Below are positions 3,824 through 43,476 of a DNA stretch of 64,000 nucleotides, one piece after another. A program made the translations under genes and the position numbers. The notes under the pieces were generated by a model. The model was not told the origin of the DNA. It was given only the letters and a program-made list of their open reading frames with translations, and searched no databases. The stretch is from assembly GCA_004022145.1 (NCBI GenBank), contig RCNU01000027.1; one strand, 5' to 3'. Origin of the DNA: Paecilomyces variotii (lineage: Eukaryota). The first letter of the stretch is position 1, and every line of letters begins with the position of its first letter.

Positions 3824-5412
3824 CTTAATTATAATACTACTAGTATAATTAGCACTATTATCTTTTAGTAAAGCTAAGAGACTAGCTATTTAAGGTAATA
3901 ATCTAAGCCTTAAAAGAAAACTAAATATTAGTATTACTATTTATAGGCCCTTAAATATTATAAATAAGCTTAAGAAGATAATTAAAACTTATAATATTTA
4001 ATTAAACTATAGATTTATTATTATTCCCCTAGATTAATAGATAATAATTCTATTAAAAAAAGGTTAAGAATTAAGTATTCTTAAATATATTAAGATTTAC
4101 TCTCTTAGCTTTAAAAATTATAAAGTTATTAATTAAACCTTTAAAAAGCTATATTAATAAGAAAGAATAAAATATGCTATTAATTATACGCTAAGCAAAT
4201 ATTCTATATTTATTATCTAGTATAATATTAAATATAATAGTAAAATAATTTATAAGAGTAAGGTAGTTATAGATATCTATAGGCTAAACTATATTATTAA
4301 ACTTAATATTTATTCTCTTTTATTATAAGAGAATATTATTATACTTATAATAAGAAAACGCGTTATTTTAATATTTAATATAATATTCTTTTAATATTAA
4401 TAGCGCATTTAATATAACTATAGATAATTATTTATTATATTATATAAAGAATAAGAAATCTTTAATATTACTATTATAGGCTTTTATAATATATTAATAT
4501 ATATTTAATAATAAATAAATTATTATTTATATACTTTCTATAAATTTATAAGAATATATATTAATAATACTATAATTACCTTTAATATAATTAATAATTA
4601 TTATATATACTTATATAAGGTTTTTAAAAAATATAAGAACTAAATTTTAAGCTTAACTCTAAGAAGTCTTTTATAGGATTTCTCTTTATATAGCTATTAG
4701 GTTATTATATTAACTTATTAAAAATAAGTATTATTAATAAAAAGATAAAGGCTATAATTAATATTTTATTTCCTTTTATAGCTTAAGCTTTAAAATTATA
4801 TTTTAGCTTAATAAAATAGTTTAAATAATATATCCTTTAATATATTAAGATTATATAGCTGCTATAAGATTAAAAGATAATATTCTTTTATAATACCTCT
4901 ATAAAAGGTAAGATATAATAAAGTTTTATAAAGAATATAATTCTAGCTATATTTTTATAAGCTAAGATAAATATTTATAATACTATTTAAAAGCACTTTA
5001 ATAATTTATCTTTTCTTATATATTATAATTTAAAGCACTAGCTTTATTTTAATATTAATACTAGTATCTTTAGCTTTAATATTATATTATATTATCTTTA
5101 TAGTAATACTAAGGCTTAATTAAATAATTATTATCTCTTTATAGTTTATAAACCTCTTAAAACTATATTTAACTAATTAAAAATTTAGCTAATTATATTC
5201 CTTTTAAAGTAGCTTAATATAGCTAAAAAAAGATATTAGCTAATAAAAATAAAGGTAATATATTTAGTATAGGCATTATATAAAATATACTATATTATTA
5301 AAATCTATTAGAAGCTATTAATTATTTTTATAGATTATAGTATTATAATTATAATTACTAAGTAAATATCTTTTTAATTAATATCTATAGATTAAATTAA
5401 TCTATACCTTAT

Positions 5413-5578
5413 TATTACAGTGTAGGGGATAAAGAAGTTGTCCTTCTATTAGCTACATAAGGAAGTAACTATATAGCTAAGTCGTTAGCCTAAGGCTCTC
5501 GCACCTTGTATCTTTGTACCTTATTAAGATAGTAGGCAGGCAACGCTAAAGTAGTATTATACGCCCGTATCTATATTA
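5413..5578 (-). repeat. 3' LTR of gypsy copy B
   Basis: Matches 13788-13953 apart from mostly transition differences; termini are RIP-compatible with TG..CA. Confidence 0.92.
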
Positions 5579-5689
5579 ATATGCCCCCTTTAAGAAAAAT
5601 ATCATCATCCTTAATAACAGAATATAGAAATATATATATAGATATAGTATAAGATATAGTTAGATATTCTTATAATTTATCTTCTCCTG

Positions 5690-8600
5690 CGCCTAATTCG
5701 CGGGAACTAATATTATTTATAAAATTGCCTGCGCTTCTATAATTTAGCTAATAGTTCGAGATACTAGTTATACTCCTAGATAAATTCTTAAGTATTAGCT
5801 AAATTCTTAAGATAATACTATATATTATAATAAGCACTATATCCTTTTTAGCGGACTAAATACTTAATAATAGTCTTACCTTAAACTTACCGGATATAAT
5901 AGTTAAATAATATCTCAATCTTATAATAACTAATGCTAGTATTATCCGCGTTAATATATAATAACAAAATATTATTAGAGGGTATAAGATATTTAAAGGG
6001 ATTATTTATATAGTATAGCTCTAAATAAATAATAGAAAAGATATTATAGCATTTTTAATAAACTGAGATATTTAGCTAGTATATAAGACGTCTAATCCTA
6101 TACTTAACTATAAATAGTCCTATATATTATACTAATAATTTCCTGCCAAGAATAGCTATATTAAGGATATTATATTTATAGTATAACCTTAGCAAGACCT
6201 TATTACTAGGGGCGAAATAGATTAGCTAATAATTCTTATTATATATATATTTAGCGTTTATAACAGCTAAGTAAAGTGCTTTACATATATTAAGTTATAA
6301 GGTAAAGTCTTAGATTTCCCTGTTATAGAGGTTTATAGCATTACCTAATTTAATACTATATATTAAATTATATAAAGATCTTATTGTAATAGATAATAGG
6401 CTAGAATTTAATACTAGTTATATTAATAGTAAAACCTTAAGCTAAGCTATAATATCTTCTAGAGCAGCTAGGTAATATTATAGGGCAATCTTAGCTATTT
6501 AATTAATTTATTCCGACTATCTATTAGTCTGCGGGTAATATACTATTAAATAAAATAACTTAGTATTAAGATACTTAAATAAGTCTTTCTATAGATCTAA
6601 TAGAAACTTTAAATTGCGATCTAATAAGATTATTAATAAAATACCCTAATTACTAATCTAGAGTTATTTAAGTAATACTAATGCCCAGTCTTTAGCTATC
6701 TATATATCTTATCCTAGTATAAATATAACTCGCTTTGTAAATTTATAAGTAATAGTTAAGATTTAGTTATATAGCTCTATATCTAGCAATCCTATAATAA
6801 AGTCTATAGTAATTATATAAAAAGAGATATTTAATATAAGGATAAGCTAATAGCTGTTATAAGATATATAATAATATATCTAATTTATTTAGTATAAATA
6901 GCAATGCTTAATATATGTTTTAACTTACTTTATAAGTCTATAGATTATAAAGTTATAAATATTAATAACTATCTAGTAATACCCAGAGTATTTTATATTA
7001 TTATGCGCTATATTAAGAATATCCTTAAGGATTAACTATAGTACGCAGAGATATTATATATTATTAATATTAACTATATAAAAGAATTTATTGCAAATTA
7101 TAAAAGAGAGATATATAGAGTTTATATTATCCTATAATATAATAAAGACCTTAGACTAATAAAGATTAGTTTTATAGCTATTCTTTAATTAAGTCTTAAA
7201 CTTCTCTAATAACTTAATAAGAGTTATATTATATTATAGCTTATCCTTAGTATTATTAGTATATATAGTCCCGAGAAATATAATAGCTAAATAGTATCTA
7301 ATATCTTTTAATATAGGAATATTTAGCTTAATAAAGGGTAATTTAAGATATAATAGCGCGTCGGCAATAATATTATTACATCTTAGCTTATATATAAGTA
7401 TAAGGTTAAATCTCTGTATATATTATAATACTAAGACAAGGTATAGATTAATCTAATCTACTAATATTAATTAGAGAGATATTTATTTAGCAATTATAAT
7501 TATAGCGCTATAGTCTATAAAAATAATTAATAGCATCTGACAGATTTTAATAATATAGTATATCTTGTATAATACCTATATTAAATATATTACCTCTATT
7601 TCTATTAGCTAATATCTCTTTTTAGCTATATTAAGCTGCCTTAAAAGGAATATAATTAGCTAAACTTTTAATTAGTTAGATATAGCTTTAGGAGGTTTAT
7701 AAATTATAAAAAGATAGTAACTATTTAGTTAAGCCTTAGTATTACTATAAAGATAATATAGCATAATACTAAAGCTAGAGATGCTAGCATTAATATTAAA
7801 GTAGAGCTAGTGCTTTAAGTCGCAATATATAAGAAAGAATAAATTATTAAAATATTTTTAAATAATATTATAAGTATCTATCTTAGCTTATAAAAATATA
7901 GCTAAAATTATATTCTTTATAAAACTCTGCTATATTTTACCTTTTATAGGGGCTCTACTAAAAAGCGCTATCTTCTAATCTTAAAGCAGCTATATAATCC
8001 TAGTATATTAAGGGATATACTGCCTAAACTATCTTATTAAGCTAAAGTATAATTCTAAGGCTTAAGCTATATAAGGAAATAGAATATTAACTATAGCCTT
8101 TACTTTCTTACTAATAGTATTTATTCTTAATAAGTTAATATAGCGACCTAGTAACTGCATAAAGAGAAATTTTATAAAAAACTTCTTAGGGTTAAGCCTA
8201 ATATTTAGTTCTTATATTTTCTTAAGGACCTTATAGAGATATATACAGTAATTATTAATTATATTAGAGGCGACTACAGTATTATTAATATATATCTTTA
8301 TAAATTTATAAAAAGCATACAGGTAGTAATTTATTTAGCACTAGATATATATTAATATATTATAAAAGCCTATAACAGCAATATTAAAAATCTCCTATCT
8401 CTTATAGGATATAATTAAAAGGCGGTTCCTATAGTTATATTAAATATATTATTAATACTAGAAGAAGACTGTGTTAAATACTAAAATAAAGTATTTTCTT
8501 GCTATAAGTATAATAATCTCCTCTTATAATAAAAGGAGATAAGTATTAAGTTTAATAATATAGTTCAGCCTATAGATATTTATAACTACCCTACCTTTAT

Positions 8601-11430
8601 AAATTATTATTCTATTATACTTAATATTATACTAGATAATAAATACAGGATATTCGCTTAGTATATAATTAATAGCGTATTTTATTCTGCCCTGGCAATA
8701 TAGCTTATTAAAGGTTTAATTAATAATTTTGCGGTTCTTAGGGCTAAGAGAATAAATCTTAGTATATTTAAAGATATTTAATTCCTAATCTTCCTTTAAT
8801 AGGATTATTATCTACTAATCTAGGGGAATATTAATAAATTTATAGTTTAACCAGATATTATAAGCTCTAATTATTTTCTTAAGCTTATTAGTAATATCTA
8901 AGGGCCTATAAATAATAATACTAATATTAAATTTCTTCTTAAGGCTTAGATTATTGCCTTAAATAGCTAGTCTCTTAGCTTTACTAAGGAATAATAGCGC
9001 TAACTGCGCTAGCAGTACTATAATTAGATTAATATAGAATATATTAGTCTTCTTATATTTATTAACTAGACTTAAGTATATCTTTTATAAAATAGTCTAT
9101 TCCTTATTTATAGTATTAATTGCTTAAATAAAGGTAAAGTTAGCATCTACTAGATAGGCGTACAGACTTATTTCTTAATAGTTAGGCTTAAAGAGATAAT
9201 TATAATTTTCTGTAAGATATCCTTTAAAGTATATTAGGATATATATAAAATTATTTAGTAGTACTACTATTCTATATATAAAATAAACTAATTATAATAA
9301 ACTATAGTTTAGCTTTATAGTAATCTTTAGCAGGATATAGATATCTTTAATAATAGCATAGGCTAAAGTAGTAAGATATATTAATATACTATAGTAACTT
9401 ATTATATTAACTTTAAGTAGAAGATTTATTTTAAGATAATTAACTAAATAGGCTTTAATTTTAAGCTAAAGTATTACTAGCTTAAAACTAAGAATAGCTA
9501 AATAATCTAAGGTAAGTTAAATATAGGCTAATAAGTTATACACTACAGGTCTTATTCTATTAATCTTTATTTTAAATATATAATAGATTTTTACTTATAG
9601 TACAACTTATTTAAGGAATATCTTATTAATTATTATTATAGAATAACCTAAATCTAAACAGGTTAGCTTTACCTTAGTACTACTAGTAATATATGCTTTT
9701 ACTATAGCATAATACTATCTATAAAAGATATATCTAAGAGGAGCTTATTTAACTAGAGACTTAGCAATAATAAGTTATAATATAGCTATAGCTATGCGCA
9801 TAGTAATAAATAATACAACATTGTATAATGTAATATTAGATAATATAATATTAAAGGCTTTAATAATAAAAGAATATAATACTAATTTTTAATAATAATT
9901 AGTATTATATAGATAATTATAGAGTTTATTATTTAACTAAAAGACTGCCTAATATAGCTAGTATTTAAATATAGAAATAATCTATAGTGCGGTATAGTTA
10001 ATATAGGCATTATAATTATCTTTGCTATAGTCTATATACTAAGGATTATTATATTTACCTTAATAATTATCTTAGTAGTAGTAGCTATTATATTTTTTAG
10101 AAAAATTAATTAGATCTAGAGTTTAATTAAGAGATACTATATTATATACTTTTAAGCTAAATATATTATAATCTTATTAATTATAATTCCTATCCGCAGT
10201 ATTTATAGCTTAACTTATTTTAATATTTAAATAAGCTATAGCTTAAGGCTATACTAAAAGATAAGGGCCTTAATTATTATTTCTATACTAGTTTAGCGCC
10301 TAATATTATTAGTTCTAGTTACTATACTATAAGAACTGGCGTAGTTATACTAGGGGTTAGCCTAGATTTTAAGTCTAACATTATTATATTTACGTATTAG
10401 ATTAATTCTATTAGTAGAGTATTATATTCATATAATTAAGATAGTTATAGCCTTAATTTCTAATCTATATAAACTATTATAGGGCTCTACCTCTAGTCTA
10501 ATTAGTATTATTAGTATTACTTTAGTTCTATCTTAGGGAATTTAAGAAGGGAAGATAATAAGAAAAGGTTTAAATATTATTATAGTTATATTGCTAATAA
10601 TAGTATTAATTCTTATCTGCTTACTTTTATTATACTATATAAGCTTCTTTAACTATCTTAATAAATTCGGACACTATAGTATTCTCCTATAGCGCTTATA
10701 TATTATATTTAAAAGATAGGGAAAATCTATTCTATATAGCTAATAATTAACTATATATTTCTCTTATTTTTATAGTATATAATAAATGCAATATTTATTA
10801 AATAAACCCTTAGGGAGTCCGGCTAGCTATAATATCCTATATAATATAATATAAAGACTTAAGCTATTTTATAGCAGTTGCGGTATTAATCTTAAAATAT
10901 TTTATAAGCTATAAGATCTAACCTTCTTTAACAGGACGCGTATATAATATTTTATAATTATATTTAGATAGCTTAGCTGTATATTATTATAAGGCTAAGC
11001 TATATAGTAATGCTTAGATATAGCTTTATATAATAAGTTCTCCTTTTATTATAGCTAAATTATAGATCTAATTAATAAAAATATAAATATCTTTATAATA
11101 AGTATAGCTTCTTATTATTATAATAAAACCTATCTTAATATAGTCCTTATTACTTAGATTAAGATAAAAATATCTTAGCTTTACCTGCTTCTATAGCGCA
11201 CTATTAATTATAGCACTTATTAGTATTCCTAGGGCAAATCTAGTATTTAAGTTTACTAAAGGATTATAGCTAAAAGTTTAATTTTAAACTAGTTACTGTT
11301 ATTAATCTTACTATTATTAATGCTATTATTATTAATATTAGTATTACTGCTACTAGTAGCTAAGTTAGCTATTATTTTAAGCTATATTATTTCGCGCTAT
11401 ATTATTCCGACTTATAAAGTATTTTATCAT
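5690..11430 (-). pseudogene. gag-pol of gypsy copy B, RIP-inactivated
   Basis: RT, RNase H, integrase and chromodomain motifs appear in gypsy order on the minus strand, with many TAA/TAG codons. Boundaries are approximate. Confidence 0.75.
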
Positions 11431-11529
11431 TTAGCAATTTTAGTCTAATATAGCCCTTATATTTTCTATTATTTACTAATTTAATTCCATTATCTGCTAG
11501 AATATCTCTATTAATATAATATTAAAATT

Positions 11530-12560
11530 AGTAGCTGGCAATGCCAGAGATAATAATAACAGGGGTTTGCGTCGAAGTCTTTAGTTCACGGTAAGCCTCC
11601 TCAGCTGAAGGAATTTGATGAGCAGTTTCACCCAGAGGAATATCCCATTGGCTCGAGGAATAATTTTCTTAATATAGATATCTGAACACGCTGTTAGTAA
11701 AAGCGTTTTCGCCATAAGTTCTTCCACTTTGCATTTTATGAAAAGTGTTAAATCGCCTGCGTTGTGTTCTCCGCGGAGGTTTAAAATATTAAACTTCCTC
11801 TTCTATAATTCCGGAATCTCGATAATTGGCCGCAAAAATATAATAAATAATATGCTTTTAAATCTATATGTCAAGTTACAAATCCTATTTAAGAAGTTAT
11901 TTGGATTGCTACATTTATTAACAGTATTGATTATAATACTGGAAGGGAAGTGTTTAAAAAGAAGGCAAAGGACGGTAACTACTTTATTATCTGTAGCCCG
12001 TCGCTGGCCAATTACTTTTTAGTTATAGAGAGTAGATGCTATGTCTATTGCTATAGTCTTATAGTAAAGGCTCTGGAGCAGCTGTACCAGAATAGAGCGA
12101 AATGCTAGGCCTGCGGTGTCTTGACCAATCGGCCTGTTAAAAAAGTAGTATGCAACCATGTTGTGTGGCAGTAGTTATGACGACGCCTGCTGTTTTACAA
12201 GATTGTCAATTACAACTGGGCAGATAGTTATCTTTCTAAATCCTAGTTTTCCCTGAATACTGAGAATAGGCTTTTCGCTGTGTTTATGGAGCCTCCAATT
12301 TTTGTAAAGGGGATCTTCCAATATCTAGTTATATGTACCGGGTTCTCGAAATATAGAAGCCTCTTCATAGAGGTCTTTCCACAGCGGCGCATTGATCCAT
12401 TGGCCGAGCTCTTGGACACGGGTATCTAGCTGTTCAATCTCTTTTTTCTTGTCTTTAAGGGCCTCTTCAGGATCCGCCTTTTGTCTTTCTAGCTTCTCTA
12501 TCCAGTTATCATATTCCTTGATAAACCGCAGTGCCACTTCCTGCGTTAACCTTGTTGCCT
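11530..12560 (-). pseudogene. NACHT-NTPase (fungal NLR/STAND-type) gene fragment inside the gypsy leader
   Basis: One frame continues ORF 12537..12325 through RIP stops: REPGTYN*I.EDPLYKNW, Walker A GKLGFRKI (from GKPGFGKT, 12229-12252), VAYYFF, AFRSILVQLL, Walker B IIINTVNKC (from IIIDAVDEC, 11911-11937), ANGIFLWVKL (~11623-11652). All motif offsets are multiples of 3. Confidence 0.88.
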
Positions 12561-13787
12561 CATACTCCCGGGTTAATAATATTTACTATATTATCAATAT
12601 TTACTGCTAGCTGTATTAAGGCTTTACCTAGATAATATAATAATAGATCTAAGAAAGAATATAATAGGTTAAATAATAAGACCCTTTAATATCTAGCTCT
12701 CTGGCTCTAAAAAATAGAATTCTAAAATTTAAAAACTAAATTAGGTAAGGCTAATTAAGGGGGTATTATAACTAGAATTTATAACCCAGATTACTCCTAT
12801 TAGTGTTTATTTATAATAAAGCTATAGAGGTACTATAAGAATATATAAAACATAGTTTATCTAGCGGCTATATAAGTTTTAATATAAAGTTAGCTAAGTC
12901 TATTATAGCAGACTACTACTTCTAAAAAGCAGAATATTCTATTAATATTACTATAAATCTAAAGAAGTCTTTAATAGTATTATAAAGGATAAATTAATCT
13001 ATCGCCTATAACACAGAAAATATAAATTATCTTGCTTAAAAAAGGTAATACCTATAGCTTAATCTAGAATACCTTAATATAGACTAATAAAATATACTTT
13101 AAAGAGTTATATCCTAAGTAGTAGGATAAGATAAAATTAATAAGATTAATAGTCTTATAGTTAAGCTAATCTCTAAACTAAGAAGTTACTATTTAAAAAG
13201 CTGCTAGACTATATATAAGCTTTAATATCCCTCTAGATAGTATAGGGAGATATTGGCTTTAATCTATCTCCTCTAAAGGCTAGCTTATTATAAAGGCTTA
13301 ACCTTAGCTTCTCTAGGTAAGACACCTAGTAAGGGAGATTAAAGCTAATTTATAATAATACTAGAGATAAAAATAATAAAACTAATAATAAAAATAATAA
13401 AACTAATAATATAATATAGGATTCTGATAATAAAAATAGGGCTTTAAATATAAGTATTCCTAGCTAACCTATAGTATCCCTAGGCGTAAGACGCATAAAG
13501 AAATAGCTTAATATAAATATTTTAATAAAAAATACTAAATTAGGGCTAATAGAGGTAGAACTAAATAATATTAAGATAAATTTTAATAAGAAAGATAAGT
13601 AATATAAAGACTTCTAATAATAACAGATAACTTTATATATAATAAAAAAGAGACTATAAATAACCCGCTAGTATTAAGAGCTAGCTTAAGATAATAATAA
13701 TTAAATAGTATAACAGATTACTATAATAATTTTCAGGATACTCCTAATAATAGTTAAGCCCTAGATAACCTTAATATACTACTAAAT

Positions 13788-13953
13788 TATTATAGTATAG
13801 AGGATAAAAAAGTTATCCTTCTATTAGCTATATAAGGAAGTAACTATATAGCTAAGTTATTGGCCTAAGGCTCCTATACCTTATACTTTTATACCCTATT
13901 AAGATAGCAGGTAAGCAACGCTAAAGTAGTATTATATACTCGTGTCTATATTA
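13788..13953 (-). repeat. 5' LTR of gypsy copy B
   Basis: Direct repeat of 5413-5578, followed by TSD CTTAT. Confidence 0.92.
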
Positions 13954-14417
13954 CTTATTTTAGTATTATAATATATATAGAGATTTAATCTTATATTTAT
14001 ATATAAGCTAAAACGCAATATATTATTATATCTTAAATTATTTTTTATTAAGCTAAATATTCTTATATTAAAAGATATTAAATATTATTTAGCTATTATA
14101 TTTCTTAAGACTATATATATTATTAATACTAAGAATAAGCTATAATATAATATAATTTTTATTAAGTTATTAGAAAAGTTTAAGACTTAATTAAAAAAAG
14201 GCTATAAAACTAATCTTTCTTAATTTAAGGTTCTTACTATATTATAAGATAATATAAACTCTATATATTTTTTTTTATAATTTATAATAAACTCCTTTAT
14301 ATAATTAATATTAATAATATATAATATCTCTATATATTATAGTTAATTCTTAAGGATATTTTTAAAATAGCTTATAATAATATAAAATACTCTAGGTATA
14401 ATTTATAATAAACTCCT

Positions 14418-17400: not shown

Positions 17401-20400
17401 AGGGAGAAACCTATCTTTACTAAGGGCTATTTAACAATATATCTATATTTAATATATGCTTAATATCTATTTAGCATAGATTAAATACTAATAAGGCTAA
17501 TTTATATTTAGTCTATAATAATATATAGAAGATATTATTAAATATTAAGAGCTTTTTAGCTATAATATTAATAATATATAATAAAATTATAGTAATACTA
17601 TATAAATCTCCTAATAAATATAGAGAAATAGTAAGATAAAAGTTTAATATATCTTTAAATATATACTAAACATATCTTTTAAACTAATAAAATTAAAGAG
17701 CTGCTAATTATTAAATAAATTAATCTTATTTACTATTTAATCCTAATAATCCCTATAATATACCTTTAAATAATAATAATAATTAATCTTCTAATAAAGA
17801 TATTAATTTTAAAATTATTTTAATATCTTTATTTAAACCTTCTGCTAAATATATATTAGCTAAAAATAAAATATTTATAGAGTATATATTAAGCAGAAAT
17901 TAAGAAAGAGGTTAATCTAAAAATTCTAATTATTATTAAAGCTAGGTTTAATCTAGAATTAAATAAACTAAGCTAAGCTCTAAAAAATCAGACTTAGATT
18001 ATTATTCTTAATACAGATTAAATATAGAGTATATACTAAATAAAGGTTAAGGAAAGGGTTAATCTAGAGATTCTAGTTATTATTAAAGCTAGGTTTAATC
18101 TAAGATTAAGCAGACTAAGCTAAGCTCTAAAAAATTAGACTCAGATTATTATTCTTAATATAAATTAAATATAAAATATATATTAAATAGAGATTAAGAA
18201 AAAAATTAAAAAAAAGATTAACCTAAAGATTCTAGTTATTATTAGAGCTAGGTTTAATCTAGGATTAAATAGATTAAGCTAAGCTCTAAAGAATTAAACT
18301 CAAATTATATTTCTTAATATAGATTAAATATAGAGTATATACTAAACAGAGATTAAGAAAGGGGTTAATCTAAAGATTTTGGTTATTATTAAAGCTAGGT
18401 TTAATCTAAAACTAAATAGATTAAGCTAAGCTCTAAAAAATTAGACTTAGATTATTATTCTCAACACAGACTAAATATAAAATATATACTAAATAAAGGT
18501 TAAGAAAGGGATTAATTTAGAGATTTTAATTATTATTAAAGCCAGGTTTAATCTAGGATTAAATAAACTAAGCTAAGCTCTAAAAAATCAGACTTAGATT
18601 ATTATTCTTAATATAAATTAAGTATAGAGTATATATTAAATAGAGATTAAGAAAAAGATTAACCTAGAGGTTCTAGTTATTATTAGAGCCAGGTTTAATC
18701 TAAAACTAAGTAAACTAAGCTAAGCTCTAAAAAATCAGATTTAAATTATTATTTTTAACATAAATTAAGTATAGAGTATATATTAAATAAAGGTTAAGAA
18801 AGAGGTTAACCTAAAGATTCTAATTATATTTAAGGCCAGGTTTAATTTAATACTATCCTAATATTTAAAAGGGTTTAAATCCCTTTATTAAATTCAGATA
18901 GCTCTGCTAATTTTAATTTAAAGTATATATTAACTCTATATTTGGCATATATTATCTAGGAGTTAAATATAGATTCTAGATAGAATAGAGCTTATATATA
19001 CTATAATAGAGGACCCTTATTAAAAGAAATAATAAAGACTGATTTTACTATTTAATTAAGAGAAATAATAAAATAAAGGCAATAAGAATTTAAGTAAGAA
19101 AAAGAAGGATTATTATAGTAGTTTATATAATAAATATATATATCTATATAGCTATAGTTATATAATAAATATATATATATATTTCTTTTTCCCCTATAAT
19201 AAGAATAAATAAAAAAATAAAGAATATTATATTATAATTATTTAAAGATATAAAAAAATAATCTTTAAATATAAAAACTTAGTATTAAACTAAAGTTCAG
19301 TATTAATAATCTTTAAATATAAAAGCTTAGTATTAAACTAAAGTTTAATATTAAGCATATATTTAAAGGAGAGTTAAGCTTAAATATCTATATATTTAAG
19401 GCCTCTAAAAACTTATTCTTAAAAGAGAAGATTATAACTTATAAATATAAATTTAATATATACTCTATATATAAAAGAGAAAAACTTATTAATAGACTTA
19501 GTATTATAATTATTAATATTATAAGAATATCTATAATTATAATTATAAGTATAGTTATACTCTAATTTAATTAGTATTTCCTTATTAATAATATATTTAT
19601 TTATATATTTATTATAAGATATAGACTATCTGCACTTTAATAGAGTTAAGGTAAAACCTATATTATAATCTAGTTCAGTATATATATAAAATAAATTAAA
19701 AGGCTATTTATTATTACTTTTATTATTATTATCTTATAATAATAAAATATTTCTAATCTATATAAGGTTAGTATATATATAATATAAACAGGGGTATATT
19801 TATTATATGCTTATAAGATAAGATTAATAAAAATATAGGATACTAGAATAAAGGCCAAGATTAGTTAAAATTAATATTAGGCATATATTAAATATATCTA
19901 AAAAGCCTATTAAAAGTTATAAATTATATATAAATAATAATATAAATAGCAATATAAATAGTAAAGAAGATAGTATATAGATTCTATTTATATATTAATA
20001 TATATTAAACTTACTCTCTAATAAAACTAGCTCCTATAGCTATTTTTAAACTTATTATTAGCGCAAGCTATTTCTTTATAAGATATAATAATACCCTTAA
20101 TTAGCATACTTCCTATATTAAAAGAAATATTAACTTAATATAAGCTCTATATATACTTAAAACTTACTATAATTTATAAATAAAATTAGTATCTTACTAC
20201 TTATTAAGTAAAATATATTTAATTAGCGCATTATATATTATTAATATAGCTTTAATATATATAAAATAGATCTTAAACTTATTATAGCCTAATTATCTTT
20301 TTATCTATAGTTATATTATTAGTCTTTATACTATAATTTAATATTATAGTAGATTAGTATATATTTAATATATATTAAAAATAATAATATACTCGCCCCC

Positions 20401-21399: not shown

Positions 21400-22884
21400 A
21401 TAAACTCCTTTATATAATTAATACTAATAATATATAATATCTCTATATATTATAGTTAATTCTTAAAGATATTCTTAAATAGCTTATAATAATATAAGAT
21501 ACTTTAGGTATTATTAAATAATTGCTAATATTTATAATTTTATAATCTATAGATTTATAAAGTAAATTAAAGTATATATTAAGTATTATTATTTATACTA
21601 AATAGATTAAATATATTATTATATACTTTATAATAGCTATTAGCTTATTCTTATATTAAATATTCTTTTTTATATAATTATTATAGACTTTATTATAAGA
21701 TTACTAGATATAAAATTATATAATTAAATCTTAAGTTATATTTATATTAGGGTAAAATATATAGATAGCTAAAAACTAGGCTTTAATATTATTTAAATAA
21801 CTCTAGATTAATAATTTAGGTATTTTATTAATAATCTTATTAGATTATAATTTAAAGTTTTTATTAAATCTATAAAAAGACTTTAAATATTTTAATATTA
21901 AATTACTATATTAATATATTATCTATAAATAAATAAATAATTAGAATAAATAAATTAAATAGCTAAGATTACTCTATAATATTACTTAACTGCTTTAAAA
22001 GATATTATAACTTAGCTTAAGATTTTATTATTAATATAATTAGTATTAAATTTTAGTTTATTATCTATTATAATAAGATTCTTATATAATTTAATATATA
22101 GTACTTAATTAAGTAACGCTATAAATCTTTATAATAGGGAAATTTAAAACTTTATCTTATAATTTAATATATATAAAATACTTCGCTTAACTGCTATAAA
22201 TATTAAATATATATATATAATAAAATTTATTAGTTAATTTATTTTACTCTTAATAATAAAATCTTACTAGTTATATTATAAATATTATATAATATCTTTA
22301 ATATAACTATTCTTAAAAAGAAGTTATTAATATAATATATAAGACCGCTTATAATTAAGTATAAGATTAAATATCTTATATACTAGTTAGATATTCTAGC
22401 TTATTAAAAATACTATAATATCTTTTCTATTACTTATTTAAGGCTATATTATATAAATAATTCTTTTAAATATCTTATACCCTTTAATAATATTTTACTG
22501 CTATATATTAATATAAAGAATACTAATATTATTTATTATAAGATTAAAATACTATTTAACTATTATATCTAGTAAGTTTAAGATAAGATTATTATTAAGT
22601 ATTTAATCTATTAAAAGAAATATAATACTTATTATAATATATAATATTATCTTAAGAACTTAGCTAATACTTAAGAATTTATCTAAAAATATAATTAATA
22701 TCTTAAACTACTAGCTAAATTATAGAAGTATAAATAACCCTATAAATAATATTAATTATTATAAACTAAGTATAAGAGAAAATAAACTATAAGAATATTT
22801 ACTTATATCTTATACTATATCTATATATATATTTCTATACTCTATTATTAAGGATAATAATATTTTTTCTTAAAGGAGGTATAC

Positions 22885-23045
22885 TAATATAAATACAGGT
22901 ATATAATACTATTCTAGTATCGCCTGCTTACTATCTTAATAAAGTATAAAGATATAAGATATAGGAGTCTTAGGCTAATAACTTAGCTATATAGTTACTT
23001 CCTTATATAGCTAATAGAAGAATAACTTCTTTATCTCCTATACTA
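22885..23045 (+). repeat. 3' LTR of gypsy copy A (last few bases missing or replaced)
   Basis: Reverse complement of 5413-5578 and preceded by a PPT. Confidence 0.85.
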
Positions 23046-26000
23046 TGTTAATAGCTATAAAAGCTCTTAATTATAATATATTATTAAATAGATAAGTTAT
23101 AATAATTTAATTAAAGAATCTATATATTATTTATAATATACTTAAGAGATTATTATAAATTTCTATTATTATTACTTAAATAAACTAAAGCTAGAAAATA
23201 GTCTTAATAAAGCTTAATCTTAAAAAGAAAAGTATTATTATAGTACTAGTATAAGAAATAAATTGCTTAAAGAGATTTACTAGCTAATACTTATATAAGA
23301 TATTATATAACCTTATAAAAATATCTTTAATATATAGCTTAATCTAAATTTAAGCTTTTTAAGCTATATTTTATTTACTAAGCTTACCTATAATAGCTTA
23401 TTCTAGTTTAAATTAGCTAAATAGAGATTCTATAGCTAATCTATACCTTAATAATAAGAATTATTAATAAAGGCTTAGAATAAAGTTAATCTTATTAGCG
23501 TAATATAATACTATAAATTTTTAATAAATGTTTAATAAGCCTTTATAAATAGTTTAAAGACTTTTTATTTTCTTAAAGATTAAAATATAACTATAAATAA
23601 ATAAGACTATATTTAAAACTATAGGCTTACTATTAGTATTTAAAGGTTAATATATTAGCTTAATTTAACCTCTATAGCTTATATAAGAATAATATAAATT
23701 TTAATAATCTCTTAATTCTTATTTTCTTTAACTTTACTTTCTAAGAGATTTCTTCCTTATATAAAATTATTATATAGGAATAGGATTATAATAATAGCAT
23801 ATTATTTTAATATAAAAAGATACTTAATTATAAGAGATTAATTAATAATATTCTTTTTAATAGAATATATATATAGATTTAAGAGAATAAAGAGATAAAT
23901 AATAGATAATACTATATAAATATTAAATAAATAGTCGCGAGATTATAGTAAATATAAAGAAATAGCTTATAAGAAAAGTAGTAATATAATAAAATAAAGA
24001 ATAATAAAATCCCTAGTAATAATATAGCTGCTTATATATAGTTAGCTTATAGAAGCATAATATAGAAATTAAATATATAATTAAGATAGATAAAATACTA
24101 TAATTTTATAGAGAAATATATACTTATTAAACTATTAAAGCTATAAAAATATAAAAGACTATATATATTCTTATTATTTACCTAATTGCCTAATAAATTT
24201 ACTAATATAATTAAAGAGATATTCCTAGAATATTAGCTAAGAGGCTTAAATATAATATAAAGAAATTAAAGATAATATTAATAAGCGCTAAATTTCTAGC
24301 TTAATATTTAGCTTTAACTATTAATAAGACTTAAAATATAATAAGAAAGGTATTTATTACGCTATAGCTTAGATAAAAAAAGAGTATTTACTCTTATTTA
24401 AGAGCTAAGAAAATAATAATAGCTAAATATATAAAGATATATAAGATATTTTAAGATTAATTAAAAATAGAACTAGTTAAACTTATTAAATAAAGTATAA
24501 CTTAAAATAATATAAGATATAAGAAACTATTACCTATAGTAATACTATAGATATTAATTACTTTTATAATTAAAGAATAAGATATAATAATAGCTAAATA
24601 AGAATATTAAATAGAAAAGAAAATAGCAGGATATAAATATTTATAAATAATACTAGCCGTTTAAAAATAACTAGAGAGCTTAAAGGTATAATATAATAAA
24701 TACGCCTTCTCTATTAAAGATATATTAATATCTTATTAATTATAATAGTTTAATATTTACTTCTATTTAAGGTATATATATTAGTAGTTAAAGGTATAAA
24801 TATAATACTTAATTGCATATAAGATTAAACTATAGTATTTTAAACTAAGACTTTAATTTTTAAATTAAAGAGTTAACTAAGATTTATAATACTATTAAAA
24901 ATTACCCTATATTAAAATATTAATAAAAATATAAATATAGAAAAGGATTATTTAAGAAAGGCTATAAATATAGTATAGAATATAATTCTAATATTTATAT
25001 AGCCCTTTATCTATAATAAAATAGTTAGACTTTTATTTTTATTCTAGTTCTTAATCTCTCTTATTCTTAGAATTAATATATTCTTTTAATATTAAACTAG
25101 CTGCTAATAACTAATAATATTAAGATTTTTTATATTTAATCTCTATAAAGATAATACCTAGGGATATTAATAAGATATGCTTATAACTATATATATATAA
25201 GAATAAAACTTAGCAGAATTAATTAAGTTCCCCTATTTCTTAAGATATTATTATTTTTATTCTTAAATATTTAACTATATAAATTTTATATAGTAGTCTT
25301 ATAGTAATTACTATATAATAATAAACTAAGAAAAAGTAGAATTTATATAATATAATAGTTATATCTAATTTATAGACTAATTAAATTAATAGTATTTATT
25401 AATAAAGCTCTTATATTCTATATTATATTTCTCTCTTATTATTTACTATAACCTTTATAATTAGTTAATATTTATTAAAACTTATATAATTATACTAGTA
25501 TAAATAGTAATAATTAAGTTAAGTAATAAACTCTCTTATTTTAATAAATTAATTATAGTATTATAATATACTTATATAATTATCTTATTTTAGCTTATAG
25601 TCTAAGATTATTTTTTTAGTCTATAGGCTATATAGCTACTTATAGGTTAAATCGGCTAAGATAATATAAGAAGTATAATTAAATTAGATAATTATACTAT
25701 AATTAGTTTAAAGGAAGTTTTAAATAAAGGCCCGCCTTATAATTATACAGTATATTTAATATATAGGCATAATATAATAATCTGCTTAATTATATATTAT
25801 AGAATTTATTTTAAAAGAGAAATATATTTATAGTTATTAAGAAAGAATTTATATTATTATAGCTTAAGATTATATATTATAAAAAATAAAGCTTTTTATT
25901 TTAATATTTAAAATAAAGGAAATTAGCAATTAATTATCTAGTAATATATATATAAAGAAAAATAAAAGGTTTATAAGAGGCTATTTATATCCCTTTAACT

Positions 26001-40745: not shown

Positions 40746-40967
40746 TATACTTATCCGCGTAAATTAGCTTATTAAGTATAATTCTAATAGTTTTAATTAG
40801 CTTATAGTCTATTTAACTACTAATTTAGCTCTTTACTATTAAGCTAAGCTTTCTTTATATCTTATAGATTTTAGCTCTGTTATAAAATATAGATCTCTTA
40901 ATAAATATATTAATTAAATCTTTATAATCTATAATTTTAAGGACTTCTTTAACTAGCTAAAGTTAAT

Positions 40968-41855
40968 TGTGTTAGATCCAGCTAGGACTAGACCTCTGAG
41001 GAGTTCTCCTTTTTGGTCGAGTCGTCTAGACTTCCGATATAGTAGCATATCGGTTCTACCCCTAGAACCTCGATAAAAAAGGCTTAGGTTCGATTCCCGC
41101 GTAATATAAATAAAAAAATCTTAAAAGAAATTCCACTAATAATAACCTAACAGCACCTATAAATAGATAGAAATTAGGAGATAAGCCCGGATCTATAGGT
41201 AGAAGACCGAAAGAAATAGATAATTATTCCGACTACTATATAATCTAAGGCACAGAGATTGTTAGTTATTGGCCTCTGCTTATTAAGCCAGGACATGCTT
41301 TTAAGGATTACAGAAGTCCCATTAAGATATTCAGACTACAGAGATTTCTACAAAATCCCCTTATCTGAGGGGGGGTATATTAGATCCAGCTAGGACTAGA
41401 CCTCTGAGGAGTTCTCCTTTTTAGTTGAGTCGTCTAGACTTCTGATATAGTAGTATATCAGTTCTACCCCTAGAACCTTAATAAAAAAGGCTTAGGTTCA
41501 ATTCCCGCGCAATACGAATAAAAAAATCTTAAAAAAAATTCTACTAATAATAACCCAACGGCACCTATAAATAAATAGAAATTAGGAGATAAGCCCAGAT
41601 CTACAGGTAGAAGACTGAAAGAAGTAGATAATTATTCCGACTACTATATAATTTAAGGCATAGGGATTGCTAGTTATTAGCCCCTACTTATTAAGCCAGG
41701 ATATACTTTTAGGGATTACAGAAGTCCTATTAAGATGTTTAGACTACAGAGATTTTTACAAAATCCCCTTGTCTGAGGGGGGGTGTATTAGATCCAGCTA
41801 GGACCAGACCTCTAAGGAGTTCTCCTTTTTAGTCGAGTCGTCTAGACTTCCGATA
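40968..41855 (+). mobile_element. Tandem TRIM (LTR-int-LTR-int-LTR), non-autonomous miniature LTR retrotransposon
   Basis: 72-bp LTRs at 40968-41039, 41376-41447 and 41784-41855 (TG..., ending cgata from CGACA). PBS-like tagtagca (TGGTAGCA) follows the LTR; PPT TGAGGGGGGG precedes the next LTR. Period 408 bp; TSD TTAAT; empty site in the sister copia at ~3410. Confidence 0.92.
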
Positions 41856-42423
41856 TTAATTATTAAAATTATTATTATCGATTAATTATTTAGCTATTAT
41901 AGGTATTTTATCTTATATAGTCTTTAGTAGCTTTAATTCTTAATAAGTTATAACTACGAGAGCTATTAGAGGAGTTAATATTATTAATAGTATTATTATC
42001 TTAGAAAATCGGTCTAATTAGGGGTAAAAGTCTATTAGTTTAACTCCTTATTATAGGTATTATTTAGTTAAAGCTTTTAATTAAATTAAAGCTCTAAGAT
42101 ATCTAACTCGTCTATTTAAAATAGTAATAAGGCTAAGCTAAGCTTATAATCTCTTAAAGCTAATAAAGATGCTTAATTAAGAAATTATTTAAGGGCTGAG
42201 CTGAACTAATCTATTTAGCTACTACTCTGCTAACTAAGCTAACTGCTAGCGCGGGCGACTATTACTAGAGCCCCTAGGGGTATTAAAAACTTATTAATAC
42301 TAGATAGCCTAAGATAAGCCTAAATTAAGTAGCTTATTTTCTAATTTATCTTATATATTAATAATATAATTATCTAGATAATATTTTATAGCATTTCTTT
42401 AATACTAAAGATAGTCTCTTATT

Positions 42424-42938
42424 GGGCCTATACCTCGGCCCAGCCGGGGGCGAGCTCAGCCTACCCTAGAAGCTCAGCCCACCCGAGTATTTTTACCATT
42501 TTTTAAGTGGGCCGAGCTTTTAAACTAAAAACTTTAAAAATTTATTAAAAGTCGAAACCTAAAGATATTTCACTCGAAATTAAATATTTATATAGGTTAT
42601 AACCTATATCTTATATATATAAAAAAAGAAAAATTAAATATCTAAAAATCGATTTTTAAGAATTAAAAAACCAAGAAAGATTTGTAATTTTCGAATTTCT
42701 ATGTGTAATTTACTAACTCTTGCCCTAGCGTACCCAATTAAAATCCTAAAATCCTAATTTTAATATATAATGTAGACTAAAATATAAATTATAATATTTT
42801 TTTATATATTTCTACTATGCCTAAATAGGCTAGGAAAAATCAAAGTTTCTTGGGGTGCGCCGAGATCCCAAATACTTGGGTGGTATGAGCTTTTAGGGTG
42901 GGCTGAGCTCGTCCCCGGCTGGGCTAAGCTATATCCCG
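42424..42938. mobile_element. MITE (515 bp) sharing TIRs with the 7-kb element at 14418-21399
   Basis: Ends GGGCCTATACCTCGGCCCAGCCGGGGG... and ...CCCCGGCTGGGCTAAGCTATATCCCG. 10-bp TSD GTCTCTTATT at 42414-42423 and 42939-42948. Confidence 0.92.
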
Positions 42939-43476
42939 GTCTCTTATTATAATAGTCTAGGCTATATAGAATATATATTATAAAATACAAACTATTAGAA
43001 ATAAAATTTTCTAATTAAATTACTAAGAAAAAACTTAAATTAAAGAAAGGTTTATATTTTTATAACTTTAAATACTGTTAATTATTTTATATAAGTTATA
43101 ATATTTTACTATTTATATACTACTAGGAAAATAGCTATAAGATTCTTAAGCACTATACTATAATAATAAATATATTAATTTAATAATATTAAGATATAGT
43201 ATATAATAATATTTAAATATACTTTTAAAACTGAGAAGCTATTTATTACTATATTTGCTGAATTCTTCTAAATATCTATATATAACTAAGTAACTTAGAA
43301 CTGCAGGCAGAATAATAGTTATTATTAAATAAAATATATAATAACTATTATCTGCTTTCTTTAAACTCTAATATTACTTTAAACTATAGGAAGCTAATAT
43401 AAGTATTTATATTCTTTTTATTAGATAATAGTATAGAAATTAATAGCTGAATTAAATAGTTTTATATTAACTAACT

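Follow-up and report, generated by a model that had tools for sequence, protein, structure and literature searches.

A RIP-mutated NACHT gene fragment within a nested Ty3/Gypsy chromovirus of Paecilomyces variotii

A nested chromovirus in an AT-rich block

The window that we analysed is a 64-kb stretch of the Paecilomyces variotii genome. It is an AT-rich block of the RIP type, with a GC content of 0.14–0.26 per kb nearly throughout and a composite RIP index of about 1. Near one end lies a Ty3/Gypsy element (E1) that is nested, in opposite orientation, in a second member of its own family (E2), and E1 itself holds a fragment of a NACHT-type gene (Table 1).

Table 1. Features of the nested elements and the gene fragment, in window coordinates.
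Feature	Position	Strand	Remark
E2, left part (same Gypsy family as E1)	3826-5412	+	reverse complement of 7438-9026
Left TSD, CTTAT	5408-5412		last 5 nt of the E2 left part
E1, Ty3/Gypsy chromovirus, complete, heavily RIPed	5413-13953	-	166-bp LTRs; 5-bp TSD CTTAT
E1 3' LTR, 166 bp	5413-5578	-	ends TA...TA, as expected for RIP-altered TG...CA
Polypurine tract AAAGGGGG	5584-5591	-	5 nt upstream of 3' LTR; read from sequence
E1 gag-pol, single frame riddled with RIP stops	5770-11130	-	tblastn with homologues
RT-RNaseH-integrase-SH3-chromodomain	through to 5770	-	part of E1 gag-pol
Zinc-finger/protease region	10035-9520	-	part of E1 gag-pol
Gag core	11130-10426	-	part of E1 gag-pol
Left copy of duplicated target, CAGGGGTT	11560-11567	.	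GGGTT at 11563-11567 exact
NACHT (NPHP3_N) gene fragment, pseudogene	11569-12567	-	residues 225-550 of P0002
Right copy of duplicated target, CCGGGTT	12568-12574	.	GGGTT at 12570-12574 exact
E1 leader, PBS to insertion site, heavily RIPed	12575-13773	-	no homology found; may include gag start
PBS-like TTAGTAGTATAT	13774-13785	-	2 nt after 5' LTR; read from sequence
E1 5' LTR	13788-13953	-	LTR-pair comparison
Right TSD, CTTAT	13954-13958		first 5 nt of the E2 right part
E2, right part	13954-14399	+	reverse complement of 6979-7440

The original prediction described the host as a complete chromovirus flanked by a target-site duplication (TSD), and this was borne out: both LTRs are present, CTTAT occurs on both sides, and gag-pol homology is colinear. 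In a 168-nt comparison of the LTR pair, 143 positions are identical and 25 are transitions, with no transversions and no gaps. As compared by eye to the consensus, the PBS-like sequence resembles a TGGTAGCAGAGC-type site that RIP may have altered.

Searching Pfam directly with E1 identified no pol domain at E < 0.01, and no homology was found for the leader. When 1200 residues of the E1 frame were used as a HMMER query, 943 proteins were returned at E ≤ 1e-3. When 10 of the 150 homologues listed were aligned to the window with tblastn, they matched colinearly, in a single frame that spans 11130 to 5770 (for example, residues 793–1943 of P0007 and residues 224–1462 of P0009). According to Pfam, P0007 and P0009 contain RVT_1, RT_RNaseH, Integrase_H2C2, SH3_Tf2-1, and a C-terminal Chromo domain; an rve domain is found in P0009 only, and below its curated cut-off. 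The order gag-PR-RT-RNaseH-IN-chromodomain is found in E1 by way of these homologues, and by homology E1 can be classified as a complete but RIP-ruined Tf2-type chromovirus.

E2 is continuous across the insertion of E1. Its left part aligns to E1 over 1589 columns, with 1350 matches, 210 transitions, and 25 transversions. Within E1, the homologous site is uninterrupted and reads ...ACCTTGTCTTAG...; a 5-bp duplication of CTTGT, with later alteration by RIP, would fit this.

Several other features of the window are noted here. At 21400-23050, the 3' part and LTR of this family occur a third time, opposite to E1 and about 82% alike, with a flank that is unrelated to that of E1. An apparent 65-bp extension past the LTR, considered as a shared flank of this copy (at 21400-23113), is AT-rich chance similarity. 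A distantly related element at about 56.4–57.4 kb is similar in its gag-leader part to E1 10720-11570, but only after RIP-type transitions are collapsed. There is a tandem array at 17713-18906, within the AT-rich block, with about seven overlapping 300-nt matches, a period of 147–159 bp, and 62–88% likeness. Finally, a second GC-richer patch at 41000-42500 (GC 0.34–0.37) contains a unit of about 150 residues that is repeated about 2.5 times in six-frame translation; we compared all six frames of 40800-43199 to Pfam and found no family match and no recognisable gene fragment.

Identity, donor, and mutational state of the fragment

The original prediction placed a GC-richer island of about 1 kb in E1 and identified it as a NACHT/NPHP3_N fragment in the sense orientation of the element. 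Both parts agree with our results. Over 11494-12610, GC content is 0.383 and the composite RIP index is -0.06, versus 0.22–0.24 and 1.0–1.3 in the flanks. A profile search with the minus-strand frame 12582..11581 (stop codons replaced by X) matches NPHP3_N (PF24883) with E = 5.8e-12 and 46.5 bits, which is above the curated cut-off of 24.8 bits.

To find longer homologous proteins, we searched 2869 candidates and obtained three matches (P0002–P0004), all of them hypothetical proteins from P. variotii, all of 1373–1387 amino acids, and all with PF24809 (DUF7708) and PF24883. The best match is P0002 (1373 amino acids), with 271 of 328 positions identical across its residues 225–547. P0002 has DUF7708 at residues 76–220 and NPHP3_N (NACHT-type) at residues 301–470, where it scores 93.6 bits; Pfam finds these two domains only and no repeat domain. 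The source of the fragment is residues 225–550 of this protein, so the island begins just past DUF7708 and contains a linker, the entire NPHP3_N/NACHT domain, and 80 more residues. The window lacks the complete layout of an NLR-like protein, with an N-terminal domain, an NTPase, and a C-terminal region. When P0002–P0004 were compared to the whole window with tblastn, the sole significant segment was 12567..11575. The other matches had E > 3, which rules out a gene remnant that was split by insertions of transposable elements.

We took the donor locus, the copy census, and the intron comparison from contigs of public sequencing runs. Donor-type contigs fit 11576-12567 only, and beyond each end of this interval their loose ends are donor coding sequence; both breakpoints are therefore exonic. 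Relative to the donor, the fragment has one extra base at 11575/6, and beyond it six further bases (11569-11574) match the donor. A 2883-nt donor contig from run X16 aligns to 11576-12567 without gaps. As regards expression of the island, X16 was the only run examined with the label "RNA?" (itself a guess); its single contig is of the donor type and the element is without cover, from which absence of expression does not follow. Donor-type contigs are colinear with the island and no gap or joint is listed. This stretch of the donor is intronless, so an intron comparison cannot separate the possible mechanisms of capture. We also considered a donor intron in the 43 nt upstream of the homology, but the donor's loose end reads as coding there (LEQSKTLF). 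Over the island, X1 and X2 each have two sequence types only, island and donor. The donor is a single-copy gene that is still intact in the same species. Its GC content is about 0.47, as estimated by adding back the 73 changes described below.

There are two further observations about this gene family. At 11690-11704, opposite residues 511–512 of P0002, the island, P0003, and P0004 have five residues (LMAKT or MERRL-like) that are missing from the P0002 model. The X16 donor contig is gap-free here, so P0002 is an allele or a gene model with a 15-nt difference. Also, one contig from X14 fits 11944-12145 only, and its loose end encodes GSNIVIDAVD, which matches P0003 and P0004; paralogous NACHT genes are therefore present beside the donor in that run.

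The original prediction also described one coding frame with the NACHT motifs. The listed motifs do fall in a single minus-strand frame, but that frame is not open and its Walker A motif is ruined. It has four internal stop codons (starting at 12327, 12177, 12021, and 11805), with a terminal fifth at 11583, close to the 3' end of the homology. Instead of the intact motif (GxxxxGK[ST]), which reads GKPGFGKT in the donor protein, the island has GKLGFRKI.

Nearly all of this decay is due to changes in the RIP direction. We classified 75 differences between the X16 donor contig and the window across 992 nt (another tally gives 77): 24 with A in the window versus G in the donor, 49 with T versus C, one C>T, and one G>T. 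Thus, RIP-direction changes number 73 (7.4% of 992 nt), and two of the 75 differences are of another kind. Among the 35 RIP-direction sites that were listed, 28 are in TpA context (19 of 23 and 9 of 12). All 52 of the amino acid mismatches to P0002 can be derived from the donor codons by C>T or G>A alone, and the stop codons derive from tryptophan, glutamine, and arginine codons by RIP-type changes. These patterns identify the island as a RIP-mutated duplicate. As judged from its sequence, it is a dead copy of about 1 kb of an uninterrupted coding exon.

It had been proposed that the fragment largely escaped RIP. That is true only by comparison with its surroundings: it is less altered than the element around it, and yet it bears the stop codons and the nearly one-directional changes just described. 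Directly to the left of the island, 28 bases could be clearly aligned (by hand) with the least mutated of the element copies listed. The window has eight G>A or C>T changes there, so the element was mutated several times harder than the island. Within the fragment, the amino acid changes peak internally: 30 of the 52 lie between 11775 and 12075, with few at the right edge (silent sites are not counted). On this count, the distribution does not look like simple leakage of RIP from both flanks.

A few positions vary. At 12507, the T of the window stands against C in all four of the runs examined, and the X2 island has C at 11848. These are small RIP-type polymorphisms of the fragment among isolates, or in other words standing variation, with a few further transitions distinguishing one isolate's fragment from another's.

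Insertion site and route of insertion

The true junctions of the fragment are at 11568|11569 and 12567|12568. The right junction reads ...ACTC|CCGGGTTAAT...; on the left, the flank ends in ...AACAGGGGTT, which is followed by a single stray T (at 11568) and then by donor sequence. No bases of the element are missing at this site, and a CCGGGTT-like motif is present on both sides. Because the left copy is imperfect (CAGGGGTT versus CCGGGTT) and the left flank has about six extra AT bases, the duplication is sized only approximately, at 5–7 bp. Microhomology between the donor and the element is 0–1 nt at each junction, as judged by hand on RIP-altered sequence.

Copies of the element without the island run through the site unbroken. 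Contigs from these empty copies jump from 11524-11552 to 12568-12587. Their letters align to 11525-11557 of the window, and the motif ...TATAGCCGGGTTAAT... (in RIP variants) occurs in them once. (We reconstructed the empty-copy sequence by hand from short contig strings, not from full contigs.) There are seven letter variants of the empty site in X1, three in X2, one in X14, and one more. Counting each X1 letter variant without the island as a separate copy gives at least seven such copies in one isolate. Within the window, both plain and RIP-collapsed blastn yielded just the distant relative at about 56.4–57.4 kb as a candidate empty copy, and it is too different at the site.

The original prediction had the island bracketed by a 7-bp direct repeat, CTGCTAG. 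Both copies are where they were said to be (11494-11500 and 12604-12610), but they are 68 and 37 nt outside the true junctions, in element sequence that the empty copies also carry, and they do not mark the boundary. Moreover, some 7-mer is common to a pair of 100-nt stretches at a distance of 1.1 kb at 96% of 2000 random positions in the window, and the CTGCTAG pair therefore has no weight as a bracket.

The insertion site lies 1.2 kb past the 5' LTR, and 438 nt more separate it from 11130, where gag homology first becomes detectable. The island is in the same orientation and the same reading frame as gag-pol. As counted by eye, relatives have 190–265 residues ahead of this gag motif, and the site may thus belong to the N-terminal portion of gag rather than to an untranslated leader. 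The original placement between LTR and gag holds in the loose sense that the island is downstream of the 5' LTR and upstream of detectable gag; it may actually be inside the gag reading frame.

Contigs of the island type are found in X1, X2, and X14, beside donor-type contigs, and differ from the window at 0–6 positions. There is one island-type sequence per isolate, as compared to the seven X1 letter variants without the island. We saw no second locus with the island among the X1 and X2 contigs that cover it, and no allele of the E1 locus without the island in the runs examined. Read depth in X1 is 820–2290 on the flanks versus 64–99 on the island and X2 shows little contrast, where depth is not to be taken as copy number. 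Nine public runs from three studies, all under one organism label, contain 0.47–0.79 of the sampled words of 10900-13960, and a run under a second organism label contains 0.20 of them. The insertion appears to be common to the three isolates examined, in the same mutated state, and to be a singleton.

How did the fragment get into the element? We cautiously favour an insertion at the DNA level, at a staggered break in an element copy that was already continuous, because no element sequence was replaced, a short target was duplicated, and the junctions lack microsimilarity. In this scenario, E1 would have integrated first. Later, a fragment of about 1 kb of the NACHT gene would have entered the resident copy as DNA, and 5–7 bp of target (GGGTT or CCGGGTT) would have been duplicated, with blunt joints, one stray base, and no loss of element sequence. 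The agent of the staggered cut might have been an integrase, a transposase, or another nuclease. RIP would then have changed about 7% of the bases in the fragment while mutating the adjoining multi-copy element sequence much harder. One feature counts against a DNA route: the fragment shares the orientation and frame of gag-pol, which a route through RNA requires and which a DNA route would give half of the time.

It is also possible, if rather doubtful, that the retroelement machinery moved the NACHT module into the element copy, either by template switching of the reverse transcriptase or through insertion, by the integrase of the family, of a cDNA made from mRNA, with the 5-bp duplication that is characteristic of this enzyme. 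If this were true, then a filamentous fungus would offer a natural case in which LTR elements relocate immune-receptor domains.

The first of these two forms, LTR-mediated retroposition, is the template-switch capture that was originally proposed: within the virus-like particle, reverse transcriptase would have left the element RNA for a NACHT mRNA packaged along with it and then returned, and the chimeric cDNA would have integrated as E1. The process is documented in yeast, plants, and animals, as in the Ty1 chimeras of yeast, Bs1 of maize, and retrocopies of Drosophila (PMC5131818, also the source of the comparisons that follow). Such an origin would account for a partial coding segment in sense orientation within an element that has both LTRs and a clean 5-bp TSD. 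Also, the low divergence outside of RIP-type changes, both in the LTRs (0 transversions in 168 nt) and in the island (2 in 992 nt), is compatible with one age for the two. The hallmarks of the process, according to that source (PMC5131818), are replacement of element sequence by the retrocopy, which was seen in all of its cases, and microsimilarity at the junctions, which was seen at 25 of 29. In E1, nothing was replaced and 5–7 bp were duplicated in an otherwise continuous element; microsimilarity is 0–1 nt at both junctions; and there is no second island locus among the contigs examined. Nor did any flanking element in PMC5131818 resemble a continuous element that is interrupted by foreign sequence. 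We consider this origin to be unlikely, and the proposal of template-switch capture is not supported.

Alternatively, the integrase of a retroelement, or another transposition enzyme, could have inserted a free fragment of NACHT cDNA or DNA into the resident copy. The exactly duplicated core, GGGTT, is 5 bp, which is the length of E1's own TSD (CTTAT), and the joints are blunt with all of the target sequence kept. These properties suit such an enzyme, but nothing like an LTR terminus is found at the ends of the fragment, the duplication may extend to 7 bp, and this is a single case, so we view it as quite improbable. Least credible of all is that the assembler mis-joined the island into the element: the region is highly repetitive, and none of the contigs listed bridges the joints between island and element, but the RIP-mutated island-type contigs of X1, X2, and X14 are distinct from the donor and nearly identical to the window, the nine runs contain much of the region, and a RIPed copy must sit elsewhere than the intact donor locus.

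Significance and comparison with known systems

A host-gene fragment that lies inside a retrotransposon and is then degraded by RIP is a known kind of event. The original prediction went further and suggested that such elements could be vehicles for shuffling NLR domains or could produce decoy or silencing RNA. As the fragment is a singleton pseudogene, with a single island-type sequence per isolate beside the seven X1 variants that lack it, it gives no evidence for either role. Its value is of another sort. It is a clean natural marker of RIP dynamics in the Eurotiales: a 1-kb sequence in two copies, of which the copy that is buried in repeats is 7.4% changed and the gene copy is intact. It also illustrates a hazard for annotation, in that matches to NACHT profiles can arise within AT-rich blocks.

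One general mechanism for comparison is filler DNA, or templated insertion at repaired double-strand breaks. As in filler DNA, a fragment from an unlinked locus is joined bluntly or nearly so, with a stray base and without transposon termini. End joining does not usually leave a clean target duplication, however, and the clean 5–7 bp duplication in E1 implies a staggered cut.

Compared to the fungal NACHT/STAND NLR-like genes that combine DUF7708 with NPHP3_N, such as P0002, the island has a complete NPHP3_N segment. It differs in that DUF7708 at the N-terminal end and the last 820 residues of the protein are absent, the P-loop is destroyed, and the frame is interrupted by four stops. In the literature surveyed, which was work on plants and animals without its supplements, no fungal NLR fragment in an LTR element is described; this is a weak negative.

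The LTR-mediated retrosequences in PMC5131818 are similar in that partial host coding sequence, in sense orientation, is flanked by one LTR retrotransposon with both LTRs. They differ from our case in the absence here of replacement, of microsimilarity, and of secondary copies, and in the duplication of the target.

The mutations themselves can be compared to RIP as reported for P. variotii (PMC6300479). There, RIP makes C>T and G>A changes only, with a bias for CpA>TpA, and blocks of about 20% GC derive from Tf2-type retrotransposons. The direction of the changes in the fragment, their bias, and the AT-rich block of Tf2-type elements around it all agree with this description (PMC6300479). The extent does not: in a P. 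variotii cross, a 780-bp duplicate was mutated by 18.1% and 20%, and both copies were hit (PMC6300479), whereas the island is changed at 7.4% of its positions and the donor has retained a full-length coding sequence.
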